From positions 1 through 64,000 of IMG/VR virus record IMGVR_UViG_3300010334_000030: a stretch of 64,000 nt of DNA. One strand, 5' to 3'. Each line of letters begins with the position of its first letter. The first letter of the stretch is position 1. Source of the stretch: a virus. The translations under genes and the position numbers were made by a program. Positions 6,050-51,007 of this stretch are shown piece by piece. The notes under the pieces are model-generated. The model was given only the letters and a program-made list of their open reading frames with translations, was not told where the DNA came from and ran no database searches.

Positions 6050-6424
6050 TTATTCTATATATCTTCTCTCCCTATTTGCGGTGTCTATTAGGCGGTTTAA
6101 ACAAGCTATAGTGGCATCATCATAATTCTTGAATGCACCATGGCTAAAATGCTCTATACGAAGGTCTGGGTACCTTATAACGTAGTCGTAAGTGTCACCG
6201 GCATAGAGCTTTACATATGAGATCATACCACAATTCTCTCTAAACCATCTAAAGGCTTGTTGGTAAATCGGTGCATTAATATTCGGAATATCTTTTGAGC
6301 CATAAACAAAATTATCACCTTTAAAGTAAAACTGACCTAGCACATAAGCAGCCATACAAGGTTCATCAAAGCCGAGTTCTTTAAGTTGTAAGGCTTGTTC
6401 GTAAGAAATGAATTCTTTTTCCAT
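6050..6424 (-). CDS. phage hypothetical protein, paralogue of 6424..6840
   Basis: Shares KEFIxYEQALxLKELGF, APxxxQAFRWFRE and ACLxxLI with its neighbour. Confidence 0.8.
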   Translation of the reverse strand: MEKEFISYEQALQLKELGFDEPCMAAYVLGQFYFKGDNFVYGSKDIPNINAPIYQQAFRWFRENCGMISYVKLYAGDTYDYVIRYPDLRIEHFSHGAFKNYDDATIACLNRLIDTANRERRYIE

Positions 6425-6840
6425 TATTGATTTTTTAATATTTCAATAAGTTTCTTTAGACAAGCAAGCTCTGCTTCTTCATAGGTATAGTATAAATCAG
6501 AGTTGTAAACTATATTCTCCCAGCCTTCAAAAAACTGAGTTGACTCATATCTAGATATAGAGTAACAGAACTTTGGCTCCATCGTTTGGTCAGCATTTAT
6601 CGACGAAAATAACAAATAGTGTTCTCTAAACCACCTAAATGCTTGTGAGAATGTTGGTGCAATACATTCTCCTATTTTATCCATGTCTTGTGGGGTATAA
6701 AAAAAATCTTTGTCTTCATAACCAATAATGACATCTGATAACAATTCCACATTTATGTTATACCAGGCAAAACATTGTTCACCAAACCCAAGTTCTTTAA
6801 GAGCTAATGCTTGTTCGTAAGGGATAAATTCTTTTTGCAT
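6424..6840 (-). CDS. phage hypothetical protein, paralogue of 6050..6424
   Basis: Same motifs as 6050..6424; tandem duplicate. Confidence 0.8.
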   Translation of the reverse strand: MQKEFIPYEQALALKELGFGEQCFAWYNINVELLSDVIIGYEDKDFFYTPQDMDKIGECIAPTFSQAFRWFREHYLLFSSINADQTMEPKFCYSISRYESTQFFEGWENIVYNSDLYYTYEEAELACLKKLIEILKNQ

Positions 6841-40198: not shown

Positions 40199-41545
40199 TT
40201 ATATATTAAAGTTTGCTGCTATTCTAATACCATACTGACTATTTTTCGATTCTAAGCTTGGCACCATATCGTCGTAGTGGTAATAAACTCTCCATGCTCC
40301 ATTAGGGTTAGGTTCTTCCCCTCCATTTGTTTCGCTTGAAGTCCAGTAATAATAATATGGATTATACGCATCACCAATTGCATCTAGCCTTTTATTAAAA
40401 AAATCTTTATGGTCACTTATATAAGTGTGATAAGAAAGAGTTGGCAAAAATGCATCCGGATATCCTGCAAGGTTTCCATAAGCTCTAGCAGCCCATGCAG
40501 CAGTTGCTTCATAGTTAGGATATCCTGATGAGTATGCAATAATAGTATCGGTATTACTCTTACCTGCTGTTATGTCATTAGATGTACCCAATTCTATCAA
40601 AGGAGCTTCTGGCTGTGTCCAGTCCATATTACCAGCATCGGAAGACCAGCCTAAATCAACTATTCCATCGGCATGACCATTTTGGAGATTATTTATCGTT
40701 ATGATAGTACCGCCACCGTAAGACTGTCCAACAAATAGAGGATTATTTTTTTTATATCTCACAGCAAACTTACTGTACATGTAGGCTACTTCTTGCGCTG
40801 ACAATACTCTGTTATACATCATTGCTATAGACATCATTCCGTACATGTAGTTGTGATTTTCAAAAACCTCTAGAAAATCACCTATTTTAACTATTTGATC
40901 ATTTTCAGTGCCGTATAGAGGGGTGGTATCATCATAATTAGATGCCTCTAAAATACCATCTATATAAAGACTCCATCCAGCATCTACAGACCAGGTAACG
41001 CAAACAAAATACCACGTGCCAGGAAGTATTGGATGATTTTTATCTCTATCTGTTTTAACACCTCCTCCTCCGTTATTATTTGCCCATATGTTTGCGCCAT
41101 CATACCATAGCCTATGTGGGGATCCTGCATTTGTAATAGTACCACTAAGAATGTCTTGTATGAAAGATTGGCCATAGTTAGGTCCTGAGTTATAACCTAT
41201 ACTATTAAAATTAACCCAAACACATTTGCTATAACTTGTGTTTGGAAACTCGACGCCAGTAATAGGGGCTGGCCGATCTCCTTCAAATGTTAAAGCCCCA
41301 ATACTTTTCTTTCCATTGTCCGCGTAACCCCAAGTGTCCATCCCAGCTGAAACGTTAAAAGCAGTGTTTCTTCCCCGTCCGCTTAAATCATACCACTCAT
41401 GTGTGGTAATAGAAGAATCAGTCCATGAATAGGGGTTTCCTGCATCAAGGTATAAGATTAGCCCATCCGTTATAGGATCTATTTGGTTAGCCCCAACGGT
41501 AACTCTGCCAGTAAGATTAGCGCTGCCTGCAATGTTTACACTCAT
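40199..41545 (-). CDS. LamG/concanavalin-like domain protein
   Basis: [45 protein letters not shown]; ATGA coupling at 41545. Confidence 0.85.
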
Positions 41546-42693
41546 ATAAGTCTTGCTCCAATTTTTATTATCCAATCACTGGTACCTGTTACATTCGAAT
41601 ATAATGAAATGCCAGTGCCACCGTTATTTACCACAGTAAAAGAAACTTCAGACGTTCCTGTTGTTCCTGCTGCATCCGGCGTGGATGTGTCAGTCCACCT
41701 TACGTCTCCTGCCGCATTCCAAGCAGCCATCACTGTTCCTGCTCTAAAACTTGACATTTCATCATCTATATGATAGTCAAAATAAGCCGCATGATAATTT
41801 CCAGAAGATATATCAAAACCTATTAGTAGAGACGGGGAAATAGCAGTATTAACAAGTGATGTAATAGTATTAATATAATATGTCCCATTAGAATTAACTG
41901 CAAATGCAGGATTGCCTTGTATTTGGCCAACAGAGAGGATATTCCCATTAGTCCCTGTATCTCCAGTTAATGTAAACACAGTTCCAGAAGCTCCAATCAC
42001 ATTGACTATATCCCCCGATGTTCCGCCAGCAGCACCAATCTCCAGAAGAGTGCCGTCAAATGTCATATTGGCCTCTGCATTGGCAGCATTAGTAGTCCCA
42101 TCGGATGTTAAAATCCGGGTTGCACCTGGATTAGAGATTGTATCAAATCCAGGACCTTGTGGTCCTGTCTCCCCTGTTGATCCAGTAGCTCCAGTTGATC
42201 CTGCAGTTCCGGTAGCTCCTGTAGCTCCTGTAGCTCCAGTTGATCCAGTTGATCCAGTTGATCCAGTAGCTCCAGTTGATCCAGTTGATCCAGTTGATCC
42301 TGTAGCTCCAGTTGATCCAGTTGATCCAGTTGATCCAGTAGCTCCAGTTGATCCTGCAGTTCCGGTAGCTCCTGTTGATCCTGCAGTTCCGGTAGCTCCT
42401 GTAGCTCCAGTTGATCCAGTTGATCCGGTAGAACCTGTTGATCCTGTTGATCCTGTTGATCCAGTTGATCCAGTTGATCCAGTAGCTCCTGTAGGACCTA
42501 TAGGACCTCCTGCAGGGCCAGTTGGACCTATTGGTCCAGTAGGACCCGTGCCACCTCCACCTCCGCCGGAAATCGTTATCTCATCGCCCAGACCATTGTA
42601 AAAATTACCAAATCCATCAGTCTGTAAAACGTTCTGAAATGTGAATGAGATCTTTTGGTCGGTGAGGTTATAATTTGGATTATTACCTGACAT
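41542..42693 (-). CDS. collagen-like (G-X-T) fibre protein
   Basis: About 44 consecutive G-X-Y triplets; 9-bp tandem units at 42160..42550. Confidence 0.85.
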
Positions 42694-43927: not shown

Positions 43928-44170
43928 CTAAAGATATAGGTCTTTTTTCTTTTTTTTCCATTCAGAATCGCTAATAGGTTTAGAAGAAAGACCCCAGTTT
44001 TTATCGGGATCTATAATTTTCTTCTTATTTTTATGCCAATCATTGAAAGTCCAGACGAATCTATTGTAGGCTTTTCCTACTGTTTTAAATCCGGTATCCC
44101 CTGGTTGGATAGCAATTGGGGATTGTGGTGGTGCATATGATCCAATTTCTGCACTTTTAGTTTTGGACAT
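43928..44170 (-). CDS. hypothetical basic protein
   Basis: ORF overlaps the upstream stop. Confidence 0.6.
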   Translation of the reverse strand: MSKTKSAEIGSYAPPQSPIAIQPGDTGFKTVGKAYNRFVWTFNDWHKNKKKIIDPDKNWGLSSKPISDSEWKKKKKDLYL

Positions 44171-44381
44171 CTTCGTTGCTGATGACAGCCTCTATTTTTG
44201 TTTTTGAGATGTTAGTGGTCTCAAATCCACCCACTGTACCATCAAGATACTTGGCCACTTTGGTTTCCACCTCTATGACAGATTCTCCCGATACAAGGAA
44301 TTCGATCTTTTTGAAAACCGGATCTCCGTTTTGTTTAACATCACCAGTCTCGAAATTTACTTTTACTAAGTAGTAACTCAT
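44157..44381 (-). CDS. DUF4494-like protein (Bacteroidota type)
   Basis: YYLVKV...G...KIEFLVSGESVIEVE...FETTNISKTKI pattern. Confidence 0.65.
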   Translation of the reverse strand: MSYYLVKVNFETGDVKQNGDPVFKKIEFLVSGESVIEVETKVAKYLDGTVGGFETTNISKTKIEAVISNEDVQN

Positions 44382-44404: not shown

Positions 44405-44584
44405 TTAATTTACTTTCTTTTTAGCATCTTGAACTTCAACTCTTAAATCTTGAGCCATTTTCTTAAGATCTTGCATGGCTTGTCTAACCCTGGTTCCTGC
44501 TGAAGAATTACCTTTTTCAAAAACCTTAGTGATGTCTGGTTTTAAGCTCTCCAGCAGAGCCTGCATTTTTTCAAACGTTTCCAT
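44405..44584 (-). CDS. histone H1-like Hc1 nucleoid protein, 59 aa (not in the ORF track)
   Basis: My translation: METFEKMQALLESLKPDITKVFEKGNSSAGTRVRQAMQDLKKMAQDLRVEVQDAKKKVN; GNxxAGTRxR signature. Confidence 0.85.
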   Translation of the reverse strand: METFEKMQALLESLKPDITKVFEKGNSSAGTRVRQAMQDLKKMAQDLRVEVQDAKKKVN

Positions 44585-44637: not shown

Positions 44638-45177
44638 CTATCTGCTAATTAACACCGAATTTTTTGTAGATCCCTCTTGAACTCTCCAATTTTCACCTAG
44701 ATATGAAATAACTATAGATTTCATATATTCAATATAGGTTCCTTTACCTTGGAAAGAAAGATTTTGTTGGATTTCATCGTAGATTCTACTCACCTTTGGA
44801 TTCAATTCCAAATAATTCAAAATACATTTAGAACAAATTTCCATAAGTCTAGAAACTTCACCGCCTGAAGCTTCGAATTTTTCATCATGCTGATCAGGAA
44901 TCTCCTCTTTGTCAATTGCAAGATCCTCTATAATTTCCGGAGAGATTTGATTTAGAGCTAAAACGCAATATGAATTTTTAGCACCTGTGATCATTTCTTT
45001 ATCTGAATATTTTCCTATGGTTAAATGATATCCCATATGGCCTTTCTCATCTTCGCTCTCTATATTAAAGAAGTAGTGGTAAACATCACTAACTTTTTTT
45101 AGTAAAAATGGCGAAGTTCCAAATCCATCAGATTCATAAAGACCTGAATTGAATTCATTAAATCTTAATATTTTCAT
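44638..45177 (-). CDS. hypothetical protein with CTS-like N-terminus
   Basis: MKILRFNEFNSGLYES. Confidence 0.75.
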   Translation of the reverse strand: MKILRFNEFNSGLYESDGFGTSPFLLKKVSDVYHYFFNIESEDEKGHMGYHLTIGKYSDKEMITGAKNSYCVLALNQISPEIIEDLAIDKEEIPDQHDEKFEASGGEVSRLMEICSKCILNYLELNPKVSRIYDEIQQNLSFQGKGTYIEYMKSIVISYLGENWRVQEGSTKNSVLISR

Positions 45178-47242
45178 CCTCTTGTTTATTATTTTTAGAT
45201 TTTTTTAGTGCTCTTCTTTTTGGTTTTTCCCCTTCTGTTAGACTTTCAGCGCTTGGTTTTTTTAATTCATCAGATTCTTTAAGTTCAACATCATTTAATG
45301 CAGTAACGAAAGACTGATAGAAAGATGCAACAGAAGCAGGAACCATTTTTTTAAATCCCAGAAAATCCTCATTTTTCAACTTCTCTCTCACGTCAGTAGA
45401 GGATGCAGATCTTGGAGTTTCTATGATTTTTATTTCTTGTGGGAAATCACTTCCGTGCTTTTTGAGATACTCTTCTTGTTTTTTATAGTCATCAACTCTA
45501 TCATCGCCTGCACCTATAGCTTTTATAATAAATCCATGTTCTTTAGCTGCACCATAAGCAATTCCTAATAATCCTCTGTTTACTATATAAAAACCTTTTA
45601 TTAAACTCTCTTTCTCTCTGACTAAACTCTCCATATATTTTCTAACTAAATCCAAACTAAATGGAGATTTTTTAGACTTACTGTGCCCTGGGTGAACTAC
45701 TGCTATTATACAAGGGAGATTGTTTTTCTCCTTCATAAAGGTAGCCATTTTTAAATGACCATTATGGAAAGGCTGAAATCTTCCAAGAATAACATTTACC
45801 GGTTCAAGCTCTTTCTTTTCCTCTTTATCTTCCTTCTTCTCATCCTTCTTAGAATCTTCAGTGAGTTTAGGTTTTCTTGATGTGTCTATTTTTTCAATAG
45901 CTGAAATAAATTCATTATATGAATAGAATTCTCCATCTTCCTCGTTTTCGACCTCACTAACATCTTCACTCTCGACAGTTAAATAATCTATCTTTCTTCT
46001 TCCCAGACTCTTTTTAAAGTCTAAAAATGAAGGTAAAGAAACAGACTCTGAAACATTCTTCTCTTTCTTTCCTGATATTCTTTTCTCCAACTGAGAAACT
46101 AGAGAATTGAATTGATCCATAATCGATTGTGTGATTATTCCACCTGGTCTCTTTTTTATCTTTCTGAAAGAATTAAGAATCAGCTTAAATAGGGATTCAA
46201 ATGATTCATCAAGATCAACATACTTTAAAACACGTTTGTCTTTGATCATTCCCTTGTTTAACCTAAAGTCATCTCTCTTAAGATACTCCGGTTCTTGGAA
46301 ATCTGCATTTTTATATTTAGAAGAATACTCGTCAAGAAATTTAGAAAAAACATCAGACATAAAAGAAACATATCTTTCGTCTTCAGTTTCACCGTCCATT
46401 GAGAATGAATCTACACCATTCTCTAAGATGAAATTCATAACGTCTAATATAGCTATACCTAAGAAATCACTCGGCTTATCCTCTCTTTTCTTCTTGGCCT
46501 TAGATTTAGCTAGCTCAGTGAAAACCGGATTTACCATCTTAGATAAAACTGGTTCGCCTTCTTCAACATCCTTACCAAATCTAAATACTATACCTTCGAT
46601 AGGTTTTTCTAAATCGTGGTTTAAAGCAGTAGTTTTAAGCTCAGGATTAAGAACCCCAATTATGAATGCAACAAAGCTTCTAGTTTTATATTCATTCACA
46701 AGGTCTTCAAATGGGGTTTGAAGAAAATTCATAATCTGAGATTTTTGATTTTCATCAAGTTCTCCCTGGAAAATTATCGGAGGTCTTTCAACACCAATAA
46801 GATCTGCCCAAGTATCAAGCTTCTCTTTATCTTGTATAGTACCCTGTGCATTTCCACTTAAATCTTTTCTGTGAACATAGGAAAGGATAAGATTGTTTTT
46901 AGGAACCCTATCGTAAACAATTTCAACTGGATTATTACTTGAAAAATACTCTAAGCCAAATCTCCATCCTCTAGGGATCTTTTGAATTACGTGAGGAGGA
47001 AGAGACTCGATATAGTTTATAGGCTTCTCGTAATATTTCATAAGAGTTCTATCAACGAGTGTAATTGGATTTCTTTGATCCCTTTTGTAAAAAAGAAATT
47101 TACCAGTTTCAATATCTCTTTCAAAAATAAATGCAGAACCATCCATCTTCTCATTCACAGTCACGTATGAGTTCAAAAGCTTATCTACGAATTCCTTGCC
47201 CTTCTTGTTATAGAGATCATATAAATGAACGATTCCTGACAT
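45158..47242 (-). CDS. fusion of an RNA-ligase-like nucleotidyltransferase and a HIGH-motif (NMNAT/cytidylyltransferase-like) domain
   Basis: EKMDGS, FGLEYF, EGIVF, KMVNP (ligase motifs I, III, IV, V); GRFQPFHNGH, GDDR, SSTDVRE (HIGH NTase). Confidence 0.8.
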   Translation of the reverse strand: MSGIVHLYDLYNKKGKEFVDKLLNSYVTVNEKMDGSAFIFERDIETGKFLFYKRDQRNPITLVDRTLMKYYEKPINYIESLPPHVIQKIPRGWRFGLEYFSSNNPVEIVYDRVPKNNLILSYVHRKDLSGNAQGTIQDKEKLDTWADLIGVERPPIIFQGELDENQKSQIMNFLQTPFEDLVNEYKTRSFVAFIIGVLNPELKTTALNHDLEKPIEGIVFRFGKDVEEGEPVLSKMVNPVFTELAKSKAKKKREDKPSDFLGIAILDVMNFILENGVDSFSMDGETEDERYVSFMSDVFSKFLDEYSSKYKNADFQEPEYLKRDDFRLNKGMIKDKRVLKYVDLDESFESLFKLILNSFRKIKKRPGGIITQSIMDQFNSLVSQLEKRISGKKEKNVSESVSLPSFLDFKKSLGRRKIDYLTVESEDVSEVENEEDGEFYSYNEFISAIEKIDTSRKPKLTEDSKKDEKKEDKEEKKELEPVNVILGRFQPFHNGHLKMATFMKEKNNLPCIIAVVHPGHSKSKKSPFSLDLVRKYMESLVREKESLIKGFYIVNRGLLGIAYGAAKEHGFIIKAIGAGDDRVDDYKKQEEYLKKHGSDFPQEIKIIETPRSASSTDVREKLKNEDFLGFKKMVPASVASFYQSFVTALNDVELKESDELKKPSAESLTEGEKPKRRALKKSKNNKQEDENIKI

Positions 47243-47267
47243 AATTTTATTTTAAAACTTTATTACT

Positions 47268-48197
47268 TTATATTGTATTTATTTCACTCGGAACTGGTAA
47301 TCCAACTCTAGTTAGATATTCCAAAAATTTAGTTTTGATGTGAGGAAGCTGATCTCTCAATTCAAAATTAGGCGATGTGATAATCTTAAACACATCCTCA
47401 AATGTTTTAACGTCATTCTGAGAGTATCCCTGACCTAATGCGAAATCTATAAACTCCTGGGGATTATTAGTTACGAATCTTTCACTACCCGGAATTTTAG
47501 CTGCATTTTTAAGTCTTGCTTTAATCTTTCCTCTGTATGATTTAGTGTGCCAGAATAGTCCATCACTTAAAATCAGTACTGGTGTTTCGTAATCCATAAC
47601 CTGACCTTCATCATCTGTGTTTATAACTTCGGCTCTAGCTGATAATATAGCTGCTAATAACCAGTTACGGTGAGCAGATTTATATTTGCTTTCACCCTTT
47701 TTGTAATCAGGAGAATAGTAGATAAACTTAGACCATGTCATATCTGATAAAGGAATAAGATCTAACTGAACCTCACCTTTACCTGGATCTCCTTCTATTG
47801 GCCAGCCTAAACTAACTATATTAAGTCCTGACATTAATCTGATCTCCGGTTTAAATCCAAGAGATTCCTCTAGCTCAGCATCGAGTATATCAAAAACTCT
47901 CTTAGCACATTCCTTATATCCAATCCCCTCTTTTTGGGAAAACCAATTTCCATTATACCCAATATCAAGGTCACCAGACGTATCGTCTGGATTTTCTTTC
48001 TTCCCTATACTTCCAATAACAACATAATTGGTTCCTTCTGAATTTGGATCTATCTCTAATAGAGGGAATAATATATTTTTAATGTTTTCCATTGTTAAAG
48101 AAAATTCAGCCTCTCTAATTCTTCTTGAGCTTTTTATAGCAGCACCGCCCTCGAAGATTTTAGAGAATCCAGAAAAATTTAAAATCTTACTTTTCAT
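47268..48197 (-). CDS. pol-beta-superfamily nucleotidyltransferase with CTS-like N-terminus
   Basis: IGSIGKK...SGDLDIG (GS...DxD) and VQLDLI third acidic residue; MKSKILNFSGFSKIFEG. Confidence 0.75.
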   Translation of the reverse strand: MKSKILNFSGFSKIFEGGAAIKSSRRIREAEFSLTMENIKNILFPLLEIDPNSEGTNYVVIGSIGKKENPDDTSGDLDIGYNGNWFSQKEGIGYKECAKRVFDILDAELEESLGFKPEIRLMSGLNIVSLGWPIEGDPGKGEVQLDLIPLSDMTWSKFIYYSPDYKKGESKYKSAHRNWLLAAILSARAEVINTDDEGQVMDYETPVLILSDGLFWHTKSYRGKIKARLKNAAKIPGSERFVTNNPQEFIDFALGQGYSQNDVKTFEDVFKIITSPNFELRDQLPHIKTKFLEYLTRVGLPVPSEINTI

Positions 48198-48756
48198 AGG
48201 GCCTTAATCTGTCATAATATCTTTCCATAGCTCCACTTAAATAGTCGCTGTAAACTCTTTCGTCTCCATTCTTAGGATTTTCCGGGTCGTATCCCTTGCC
48301 AAAATAACCTTTCCCTTTTAAAACACCAGAGGTGTAGAAATCTTGGGCATCCTTTTGGGTTACATTTTTTCCTTTAATGTTTTTAGCTTCCCAGCTATCT
48401 AAAACATCATCTTTCTTCTGCTCCACTCTATCTTTAGACATCTTAGCAAATGTGTCTTTATTATCCCCAGTTGAGAAGAAATCAGCTACGGCAGCACCAG
48501 CACTGAATATCAATCTACCAAATAAAGAAAAAACATTTTTTGCTATGTTAACAGGATCTTCCCCACTATTTTGATAAGAATCTCCCTTTCTATATTCAAT
48601 GTCACTTCTAAGACCAGATGACATTCCCCTCATCCATCTGCTAAATTTGGTTTTTCCTTTATCAGATGGTGCATATTCTGAAGATCTCCCTCTTGAATAA
48701 TACCTGCTAGATTCACTAATGGATTCAGAAAAAGCCTCGAATTTTTTAATTCTCAT
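48187..48756 (-). CDS. hypothetical protein with CTS-like N-terminus
   Basis: MRIKKFEAFSESISES; GATATATA at 48777..48784. Confidence 0.75.
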   Translation of the reverse strand: MRIKKFEAFSESISESSRYYSRGRSSEYAPSDKGKTKFSRWMRGMSSGLRSDIEYRKGDSYQNSGEDPVNIAKNVFSLFGRLIFSAGAAVADFFSTGDNKDTFAKMSKDRVEQKKDDVLDSWEAKNIKGKNVTQKDAQDFYTSGVLKGKGYFGKGYDPENPKNGDERVYSDYLSGAMERYYDRLRPYEK

Positions 48757-48790
48757 TGGGAACTTCTATTTTTCTATATATATCCCCTGG

Positions 48791-50317: not shown

Positions 50318-51007
50318 TTATTCTTTATTTTTATAAGACCATAAAAATCCACCTGCACTTTTACCCCTTCCGTTTAAAATTTTAGAAATAGAGCAAACCC
50401 CAGTTTTTTCTTGTGCCTCTTTAATTGATTCAAACTCATTAATAAAAGCTCCGGACATATCCATTTGAATAACAGGCTTACTTCTAGATTTTATCATTTT
50501 ATTTATACTATCTTGAGAAAATTTGAATCCAAGGGTTCTTTTGTTACCCTTCATTGATTCATGAATTTTTTTTAAATGTTTTGATTGGTTTTCAGTAAGA
50601 ATACCTTTTTTGGAAAGCCCCAGATTTTTTCTATGCTCCTCCGTAAAGAATCTATTTCCATTTCCCTCCCCACCATTACTAAGATTTCTTAAAGGTCCAT
50701 TTTTTAAATCAAATCTACCTATTGTCACTATCATTTCATTCTCTATGGAAAATGAATCTTTCTCATTAAGATTCTCACTATATTTAATTATTACCGGCTC
50801 CAATCCGCAATCCAGTATTTTTTTAATTATATGATACTTAGGAAGATTCGAATATTTCCCGCGTTTAACTTTCTGTAAATGTATTCTGCTTCTAAAATTC
50901 CTACCCTTCCCTACATAAAAAGGCTCATATTCAAAGATATACTTCCCGTAAGCCCAATTTCCAGGTTTTCTTGGATCTAAATAAACATAAACATAATAAT
51001 TATCCAC
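50318..51007 (-). mobile_element. free-standing GIY-YIG homing endonuclease with NUMOD repeats
   Basis: YYVYVY...FYVGKG...R, NLSNGGEG, FTEEHRKNL (NUMOD3), EFESIKEA...SAGGFLW (NUMOD1). Confidence 0.85.

Follow-up and report, generated by a model that had tools for sequence, protein, structure and literature searches.

A four-gene phage cassette of ligase, HIGH, and polymerase-X-like nucleotidyltransferases as candidate machinery for filling and sealing broken nucleic-acid strands

The first 64,000 nucleotides (nt) of a 141-kb contig (IMG/VR virus record IMGVR_UViG_3300010334_000030; this 64-kb stretch as a whole is hereafter the window) carry on the minus strand, between positions 48756 and 44638, four adjoining genes whose products are 189, 309, 694, and 179 amino acids (aa) long. 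It is tentatively proposed, at a probability of about 0.42 and from sequence and predicted structures, that this cassette is transcribed late and fills and seals broken strands of nucleic acid. Under this proposal, the 309-aa protein, which reads as a minimal polymerase-X-like enzyme, would extend or fill a recessed 3'-OH end, and the Rnl2-type ligase domain of the 694-aa protein would self-adenylate on K32 and seal the resulting nick. A second domain of the 694-aa protein, which belongs to the HIGH superfamily and resembles nicotinamide mononucleotide adenylyltransferase (NMNAT), would supply or recycle an adenylate compound for the ligase, its substrate being putative. The 189-, 309-, and 179-aa proteins begin with a leader (or tag) like that of the internal head proteins of phage T4; these proteins and the 694-aa fusion, which holds tag-like motifs in its linker, would enter the prohead, undergo trimming there, and reach the host cell together with the DNA.

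Arrangement of the cassette

The contig has a G+C content of 35.8%, is 51% complete according to CheckV, and belongs to a lineage of T4-like large phages whose complete relatives have genomes of 289-434 kb. The minus strand holds almost all of its genes, and those for a gp32-type single-stranded-DNA-binding protein, a primase, and a UvsW-like helicase near the cassette mark a replication and repair block. The four open reading frames (ORFs) follow one another on the minus strand as the 189-aa (48756..48187), 309-aa (48197..47268), 694-aa (47242..45158), and 179-aa (45177..44638) genes, with overlaps of 11 nt and 20 nt and a single gap of 25 nt; the 20-nt overlap is that of the 694- and 179-aa genes, which share positions 45158-45177 in different frames. 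A copy of the GATATATA box at 48777..48784 on the same strand is a candidate late promoter for the cassette, being located 21-28 nt upstream of the first ATG (48756) and inside the 34-nt spacer that follows the helicase gene. An earlier note on this DNA had described four coupled genes behind one such box, and both the ORF coordinates and the position of the box agree with that description. All of the motifs it quoted are present in the translations, namely EKMDGS (residues 31-36), EYF (98-100), EGIVF (216-220), KMVNP (235-239), LPSFLDFKK (403-411), YSYNEFIS (440-447), and GRFQPFHNGH (487-496) in the 694-aa protein, together with the pol-beta signature residues GS (62-63) and DLD (76-78) in the 309-aa protein.

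The GATATATA box is over-represented, with 12 copies in the window relative to an expectation of 4.3 +/- 2.3 and with none of 100 shuffles reaching 12. The contig holds 26 copies, 17 of which are located ahead of a called gene, usually at 25-37 nt from the ATG, and the prohead protease gene and several leader-bearing genes are preceded by the box. The late promoter of T4 is TATAAATA, and the comparison makes GATATATA a candidate late promoter by its behavior. No terminator-like sites were found on the coding strand within the cassette, and sigma-70-like sites were no more frequent than expected by chance.

Conservation of gene order and domain fusions

Joint conservation of the four genes is borne out across 83 related loci (49-74% identity), most of which keep the order helicase-189-309-694-179-Hc1-DUF4494; the 189-aa gene is present in 72 of the 83. 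Synteny of this kind could, by itself, be plain collinearity. If so, the genes would be neighbors through the collinearity of a replication block and would act separately, with the leader serving a purpose unrelated to the head, an account that is considered unlikely. It accommodates the flanking gp32, primase, helicase, Hc1, and DUF4494 genes being equally syntenic, the loss of the 309- and 189-aa genes in some relatives, the occurrence of single components in distant phages, and the 179- and 189-aa proteins having no detectable fold relatives. It is opposed by independent fusions that join the same three domain types, by the translational coupling of the genes behind one promoter-like box, and by the strong enrichment of the tag, which is also found on four consecutive genes next to the protease gene.

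The fusions, which join the same domain types in proteins elsewhere, are stronger evidence of a functional link than the synteny. Domains like the 309-aa protein are fused to GRFQPFH-type HIGH nucleotidyltransferases (NTases) in P0293, P0313, and P0326 and to DUF6267 in P0365, and P0284, P0288, and P0291 unite all three types (HIGH NTase, 309-like, and DUF6267) in one chain (for P0288 and P0293, the genomic context is that of one IMG/VR locus). The triple fusion in locus L093 adjoins genes for gp32, a primase, and a helicase of the same family as that beside the cassette. DUF6267 carries the motifs (S/T)xKIDGAP and QEGFA...VVK(I/L)VDR, which are read here as ligase motifs I, IV, and V. Because an hhalign comparison of the ligase core with DUF6267 was not significant (probability 0.2%, with just the stretch leading into KxDG aligned), the ligase nature of DUF6267 is a matter of motif inspection. 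This domain occurs, with no function annotated, in 249 phage records, mostly of T4-like cyanophages. In the interval from gp41 to gp61 of Syn1 (L094:4977-6733), the DUF6267 gene immediately precedes one for a cytidyltransferase, and in S-PM2 (L095:4989-8793) a gene for a 'possible cytidyltransferase' is located one gene beyond it. A ligase-like domain plus a HIGH NTase seems to form the core, which a polymerase-X-like enzyme often joins as a third partner. The link to the ligase-HIGH pair is not obligate for the 309- and 189-aa proteins, and a more distant phage, LR756500, keeps the fusion and the helicase and not the 309-, 189-, or 179-aa genes.

The ligase-HIGH fusion protein

The first 255 residues of the 694-aa protein (46478..47242, minus strand) are assigned by sequence to the Rnl2-type ligase NTases (PF09414), with K32 in motif I; the earlier note had named an Rnl2-like domain here. 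Pfam places PF09414 at residues 26-225 with an E-value of 1.2e-3, below the gathering score. When the N-terminal domains of the family were scanned singly, 20 of 25 matched PF09414 (best E-value 3.9e-8), and the fusion homolog in G004 reached about 27 bits. An Atlas feature search with residues 1-400 retrieved PF09414 clusters at 0.95, some of them with T4_Rnl2_C. Further, K32, E98, E216, G217, and K235, the residues of motifs I, III, IV, and V, are invariant in all 59 members of the family alignment. The spacing of these motifs, which we take to be like that of T4 Rnl2, serves as a lead only. Searches of the PDB with the sequence and profile of the ligase core gave no meaningful match. An all-helical domain (residues 256-395; 46058..46477, minus strand) is encoded 3' of the ligase core and is kept in stand-alone homologs of 440-453 aa from megaphages; AlphaFold2 (AF2) predicted only helices here, with a predicted local distance difference test score (pLDDT) of 60-83 at about residues 260-360 and a helical stretch that reaches about residue 390. 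The T4_Rnl2_C domain (PF18043) was not detected in the 694-aa protein.

The clade of the window keeps an active-looking ligase, whereas other lineages hold degenerate copies. The fusion in LR756500 (32% identity) carries the substitutions K32N, E98Q, and E216D, and just upstream of it is another ligase-like gene, which is tagged and has intact EKLDG and EGIVF motifs (the LR756500 loci are L006:6001-7962 and L006:4704-5969). The stand-alone homologs, from five megaphage records of 635-735 kb, also lack the lysines. Among the degenerate homologs of the ligase core (LR756500; L007, L090-L092), ENLDG or E(D/N)(V/I)QGS takes the place of EKMDGS, and the catalytic Lys, Glu, and Lys are lost. A role of the 694-aa protein as the replicative DNA ligase was rejected because all five complete relatives encode a T4-like PF01068 DNA ligase elsewhere. 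The complete relatives also have a separate canonical Rnl2, and the NAD-dependent ligase LigA is absent from all five.

The HIGH-superfamily domain (residues 479-650; 45293..45808, minus strand) is an NMNAT-like adenylyltransferase with the motifs GRFQPFHNGH and SSTDVR, and the fold and nucleotide-binding motifs that had been claimed for it are established, its acceptor substrate being putative. Pfam recognizes PF01467 (CTP_transf_like) at residues 485-621 with an E-value of 1.2e-7, above the gathering score; the AF2 model of the domain has a pLDDT of about 85, and Foldseek relates it to NadD, NMNAT, and PPAT at E-values of 1e-7 to 1e-5. The family profile matches the archaeal NMNAT structures 1f9a and 1ej2 at an E-value of about 1e-4, with GRFQPFHxGH and SGTxVR both aligned.

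This likeness raises the question of whether the HIGH domain is a true NMN adenylyltransferase and the cassette mainly rebuilds nicotinamide adenine dinucleotide (NAD+), together with NadV, against defenses that deplete it, with its ligase-like and polymerase-like parts in a secondary role. Salvage of NAD+ by NadV and NadM has been described in phages (PMC9503650). The archaeal and NadM-type enzymes (1f9a, 1ej2, 2qjt) have the GRFQPFHxGH and SxTxxR motifs and the Rossmann-like HIGH fold in common with this domain, the overall fold being that of NMNAT and NadD, and in two complete, NadV-bearing relatives (G002 and G003) the fusion is the sole PF01467 protein. However, the domain scores 13-29 bits against every curated model of NMNAT or nicotinate mononucleotide adenylyltransferase (NaMNAT), for which the cut-offs are 112-449 (TIGR01527, 22.1 versus 181.2; NF002243, 28.6 versus 127; NadM models, 13-22 versus 354-449), and the generic domain model TIGR00125 is the only one that it passes. 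NadV is absent from two of the five complete relatives that keep the fusion and from the 51%-complete contig, and the 694-aa protein has a ligase where NadM-type enzymes have a Nudix or kinase partner domain. Because the equivalog cut-offs are failed (about 22 bits against 127-449) and NadV is present in only three of the five complete relatives, the NAD+ resynthesis that the earlier note had suggested is doubtful, and the reading of the cassette as chiefly an NAD+ salvage system is quite improbable. Moreover, unrelated phages repeatedly have the HIGH domain joined to, or encoded beside, a ligase-like domain, a recurrence that points to a joint function on nucleic acids.

An extended form of the fill-and-seal proposal is that the HIGH domain works directly for the ligase, by adenylating 5'-phosphate ends, a chemistry identical to that of NMN adenylation, or by recycling NMN to NAD+ at the active site, and that the cassette belongs to a widespread, undescribed machine of ligase-like, HIGH, and polymerase-X-like parts that, in the clade of the window, is packed into the head and injected before any gene is expressed. 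This extension is also given a low probability. The pairing of a HIGH domain with a lysine-less pseudo-ligase in LR756500 would fit such a division of labor, and, were it true, sealing would be independent of the lysine step or of the NAD+ pool of the cell.

The polymerase-X-like protein

The 309-aa protein had been described as a pol-beta NTase, a claim that predicted structures sustain where libraries of known families are silent: neither Pfam, PHROGs, nor NCBIfam returned a match. An exhaustive search found 482 representative clusters in its family, including 48 with an E-value of 1e-30 or better, and members in Lak megaphages and in Atu_ph07; many members begin at about query residue 14-17, just past the leader. 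AF2, supplied with 68 diverse members, gave a confident model (pLDDT 95.3; predicted template modeling score 0.89). When this model was compared with about 48,000 chains in a VIA fold search, family X polymerases ranked at the top, including Pol beta (Z 9.4), Leishmania Pol beta (Z 9.4 over 203 residues), TdT (Z 9.2), Thermus PolX (Z 9.0), and PolX of African swine fever virus (ASFV; Z 9.2, with 166 of 176 residues aligned at a root-mean-square deviation of 3.6); these Z values of about 9 exceed the background of 7-8 stated by VIA by only a modest margin. The family X alignments cover model residues from about 21 to 267, that is, the palm plus the thumb. Foldseek ranked Pol lambda first, at an E-value no better than 1.3e-3, and in BFVD the top matches were uncharacterized phage proteins (Atu_ph07, E-value 5e-18), followed by giant-virus family X polymerases at an E-value of about 1e-2. 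Residues G62, S63, K66, K67, S74, G75, D76, D78, and D146 are invariant, with D76, D78, and D146 present in 57 of 57 sequences, and the catalytic residues are on adjacent strands of the model (76-82 and 142-150). The 8-kDa lyase and helix-hairpin-helix (HhH) domains are absent from the 309-aa protein, which starts with its tag and then one helix. Because family X enzymes align over the palm plus the thumb, and do so at a higher Z than other NTases, the 309-aa protein reads as a minimal polymerase-X-like enzyme. RlaP (PF10127) was tried and rejected as an identity for the family, with no match in any of the 68 members, in any of the five complete relatives, or in the window protein at E-values up to 1.

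The possibility that the 309-aa protein is instead a signaling or tailing NTase, akin to CD-NTases, OAS, or terminal uridylyltransferases (TUTases) and making or destroying messengers or tailing RNA rather than filling gaps, is very improbable. The GS...SGDhDh signature is indeed common to non-canonical poly(A) and uridylyl transferases, and the fold search did return TUT7, GLD-2, and CdnG (Z 6.8-8.6), but these matches span about 93-111 palm residues as opposed to the 166-203 residues, C-terminal subdomain included, that align with family X at higher Z. The same is true of TUTases, GLD-2, CD-NTases, OAS, and CCA enzymes taken together (about 92-114 palm residues, Z 5.2-8.6). Since the CD-NTase match covers the palm only, about 100 residues (CdnG, CdnE, CdnD, and OAS: Z 5.3-6.8 across about 95-114 residues), the nucleotide signaling that the earlier note had raised is unlikely. 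In addition, Pol lambda leads the Foldseek ranking, and the fusion partners of the 309 family are ligase-like domains and not effectors or sensors.

Leader sequences and head packaging

Three of the four genes (189, 309, and 179) do carry the N-terminal tag attributed to them. In the 189-aa protein, the leader MRIKKFEAFSESISE is followed by a middle part that varies and by a conserved block toward the C terminus, W...FY..G..KGK.YFG..P...Y..Y; the leader of the 309-aa protein, MKSKILNFSGFSKIFE, precedes a conserved GGAAIK start; and that of the 179-aa protein, MKILRFNEFNSGLYE, is followed by a conserved SDGFGTSPFL start. The tripeptides LYE, IFE, and ISE occupy positions 13-16 of the three tagged proteins. 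In each of the three families, the leader varies in sequence but stops at a Glu that is conserved and has a hydrophobic P3 residue, and strong conservation starts right after it (GGAAIK, SDGFGTSPFL). Defined strictly as M, 1-8 residues, F/Y-x-x-F/Y/W, and then (L/I/V/M)-x-E, the pattern fits 13 of 131 gene starts, about 8-fold more than shuffled N-termini (1.6 +/- 1.2, maximum 5), and it fits 1.6% of windows that begin at an internal Met. A T4-type prohead protease (Peptidase_S77) is encoded at G000:123781-124122, its domain lying within a 664-aa ORF that is much longer than T4 gp21, and four consecutive genes by the protease gene (G000:C1 117963-122199, minus strand) all start with the leader pattern. 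The core and scaffold genes of T4 have the same leader arrangement. Leader-matching starts are also seen in two tandem paralogs (6050-6424 and 6424-6840, minus strand), which begin with MEKEFISYEQALQLKELGF and MQKEFIPYEQALALKELGF and look like a distinct small family.

Tag-like motifs are also found within the acidic linker of the fusion (residues 396-478; 45809..46057, minus strand). Residues P404, F406, F409, F439, S441, F445, I446, and E450 of the linker are invariant in 35 homologs, the remainder being variable, and a looser form of the pattern is preserved in 59 of 59 family members. The first of two blocks reads V-S-E|S followed by xSFLDFKK, which in distant relatives becomes (V/I)-N-E-S-x-F-x-S-F-x-(D/E)-F. 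The second is FYSYNEFISA(L/I)E (YSYNEFISAIE in the window) and is close to the T4 leader MKTYQEFIAE. In T4, this leader of the internal proteins IPI-III is cut by the gp21 protease at L/I-x-E (PMC3012670, and established knowledge). The cassette leaders are similar to the T4 capsid-targeting sequence in having an N-terminal aromatic-x-x-aromatic element followed by (L/I/V/M)-x-E, in the encoding of a T4-type protease, and in the occurrence of leaders beside the protease gene; they differ in that the cargo would be nucleic-acid enzymes rather than small basic proteins and in that the 694-aa protein carries its motifs internally. Because the leaders end at prohead-protease-type (L/I/V/M)-x-E sites, the enzymes are probably loaded, trimmed, and delivered with the DNA. 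Together with the T4-type protease and the late-promoter-like box, these sites make loading into the prohead and trimming plausible, and the enzymes may be delivered by the virion.

Past their leaders, the 189- and 179-aa proteins are both conserved. The 189-aa protein has no relative in Pfam, PHROGs, NCBIfam, or the PDB, and the same searches were negative for the 179-aa protein, for which the best Atlas score was 0.75. A 2H phosphoesterase identity for the latter, suggested by H-L-T at residues 51-53, was abandoned because the family does not conserve the Thr. L011 (identical to P0008) and L047 have the homologs of the 694- and 179-aa proteins in a single in-frame ORF of 855-867 aa, in which the leader is internal; L065 is a third case of a fused ORF (871 aa), but one that lacks the DGFG junction. 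The overlapping arrangement and the in-frame fusion differ by one base upstream of the ATG.

Assessment of fill-and-seal repair and relation to known systems

Several observations weigh against fill-and-seal repair. No end-healing kinase or phosphatase was seen, none having been searched for. With regard to gene content, the 309- and 189-aa genes are both missing from L065, L073-75, and L078, the 189-aa gene alone is undetected in L033, L035, L037, L071, L082, and L083, and the 309-aa gene is missing from L042. The 309-like gene of Lak phages has no ligase or HIGH neighbor and is flanked by genes for dihydrofolate reductase-thymidylate synthase (DHFR-TS) and another NTase, and the cyanophage loci have no 309-like gene nearby. 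As for the domains, the polymerase X match is at the level of fold only: PDB sequence searches with the 309 family returned nothing meaningful, and the palm model PF14792 (DNA_pol_B_palm) is matched by 4 of 68 members at an E-value of 0.009 or weaker and not by the window protein. The ligase core of the window protein scores 19.5-23.2 bits against PF09414, for which the cut-off is 27, and AF2, supplied with 35 homologs (63-100% identity), left residues 1-260 unmodeled at a pLDDT below 50. The need for a ligase in the fusion is also unclear because the relatives already have a DNA ligase and an Rnl2. Finally, the 694-aa protein is without an N-terminal tag, and the cassette is among replication genes and not in the head-gene block.

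Fill-and-seal repair fits known themes in which a ligase and an NTase repair strands together. RlaP NTases of jumbo phages work with RNA ligases and add 1-2 nt to damaged RNA 3' ends before sealing (PMC7824862, PMC12776372). The cassette is like the pairing of T4 Rnl2-type ligases with RlaP in combining a PF09414 lysine-adenylate ligase with a pol-beta NTase, in its occurrence in large phages, in the residues of motifs I, III, IV, and V, and in having a helical domain after the ligase core. It is unlike that pairing in that its NTase is not RlaP, its ligase is fused to a HIGH domain and is accompanied by a separate canonical Rnl2, its proteins carry leaders, and PF18043 is lacking. In giant viruses, Pol X is paired with or fused to a ligase for base excision repair, as exemplified by the PolX-ligase fusion of Phaeocystis globosa virus (PMC5537341). 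With that fusion and with Pol X and ligase of ASFV, the cassette shares the palm plus thumb, the GS..KK...SGDhD signature and third Asp, and a ligase partner, as well as a replication and repair setting with glycosylase genes nearby in relatives. However, the 309-aa protein shows no significant similarity to Pol X in sequence, and its beta-sheet region is enlarged and its C terminus extended by further helices; its ligase partner is of the Rnl2 type and not a DNA ligase; and the 8-kDa lyase and HhH domains are absent, as both are from ASFV PolX.

The likely substrate is split between these two precedents, with a slight lean toward RNA. RNA, or nicks with a 3' ribonucleotide, are favored because the ligase family is Rnl2-type, whereas DNA is favored by the fold of the 309-aa protein, by the replication and repair neighborhood, and by the Fpg and EndoIII genes nearby in relatives. 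As the evidence splits, the proposal goes no further than filling and sealing of broken strands. The suggestion that three NTase folds act together as an injected anti-defense kit stands in part: the HIGH and pol-beta folds are real, the ligase fold is probable from its sequence, and the fusions and the co-conservation favor joint action. That the joint action serves against host defenses, and that the enzymes are injected with the DNA, is what we infer.

Neighboring genes

Directly 3' of the cassette is a gene for a 59-aa lysine-rich protein (44405-44584, minus strand), whose homologs in relatives carry PF07432 (histone H1-like Hc1), and also 3' of the cassette is one for a 74-aa protein (44157-44381, minus strand), whose homologs carry PF14902 (DUF4494); the synteny of both genes equals that of the cassette. 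Some 2 kb beyond the 3' end of the cassette is the gene for a 383-aa protein (41542-42693, minus strand) with a long collagen-like block of G-x-T/G-S-T-G-A-T repeats; the small genes around it are unlike those at this place in relatives. On the other side, between the helicase gene and that for a 147-aa protein, a 229-aa ORF (50318-51007, minus strand) has GIY-YIG-like motifs (YVYVY...YVGKG); L001, L003, and L004 have no gene at this position, and the ORF is, on its motifs, a putative homing-endonuclease insertion.

Implications for large phages

To judge from the literature searched, the minimal polymerase-X-like phage family, the partnership of ligase and HIGH domains, the triple fusions, and head-targeting leaders on enzymes of this kind are undescribed. 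The 309-aa family, for all its 482 clusters, is unnamed in any domain library. The partnership of HIGH and ligase-like domains is recurrent, as a fusion here and in LR756500, as adjacent or near-adjacent genes in T4-like cyanophages, and within the triple fusions elsewhere. It points to a biochemical partnership and suggests, for DUF6267 and the 'cytidyltransferase' genes of marine cyanophages, a function that can be tested. If the proposed packaging is true, T4-style delivery, so far a matter of Alt and small internal proteins, would through the tags come to include a set of repair enzymes, with a bearing on the survival of large phages in the first minutes after their DNA enters the cell.

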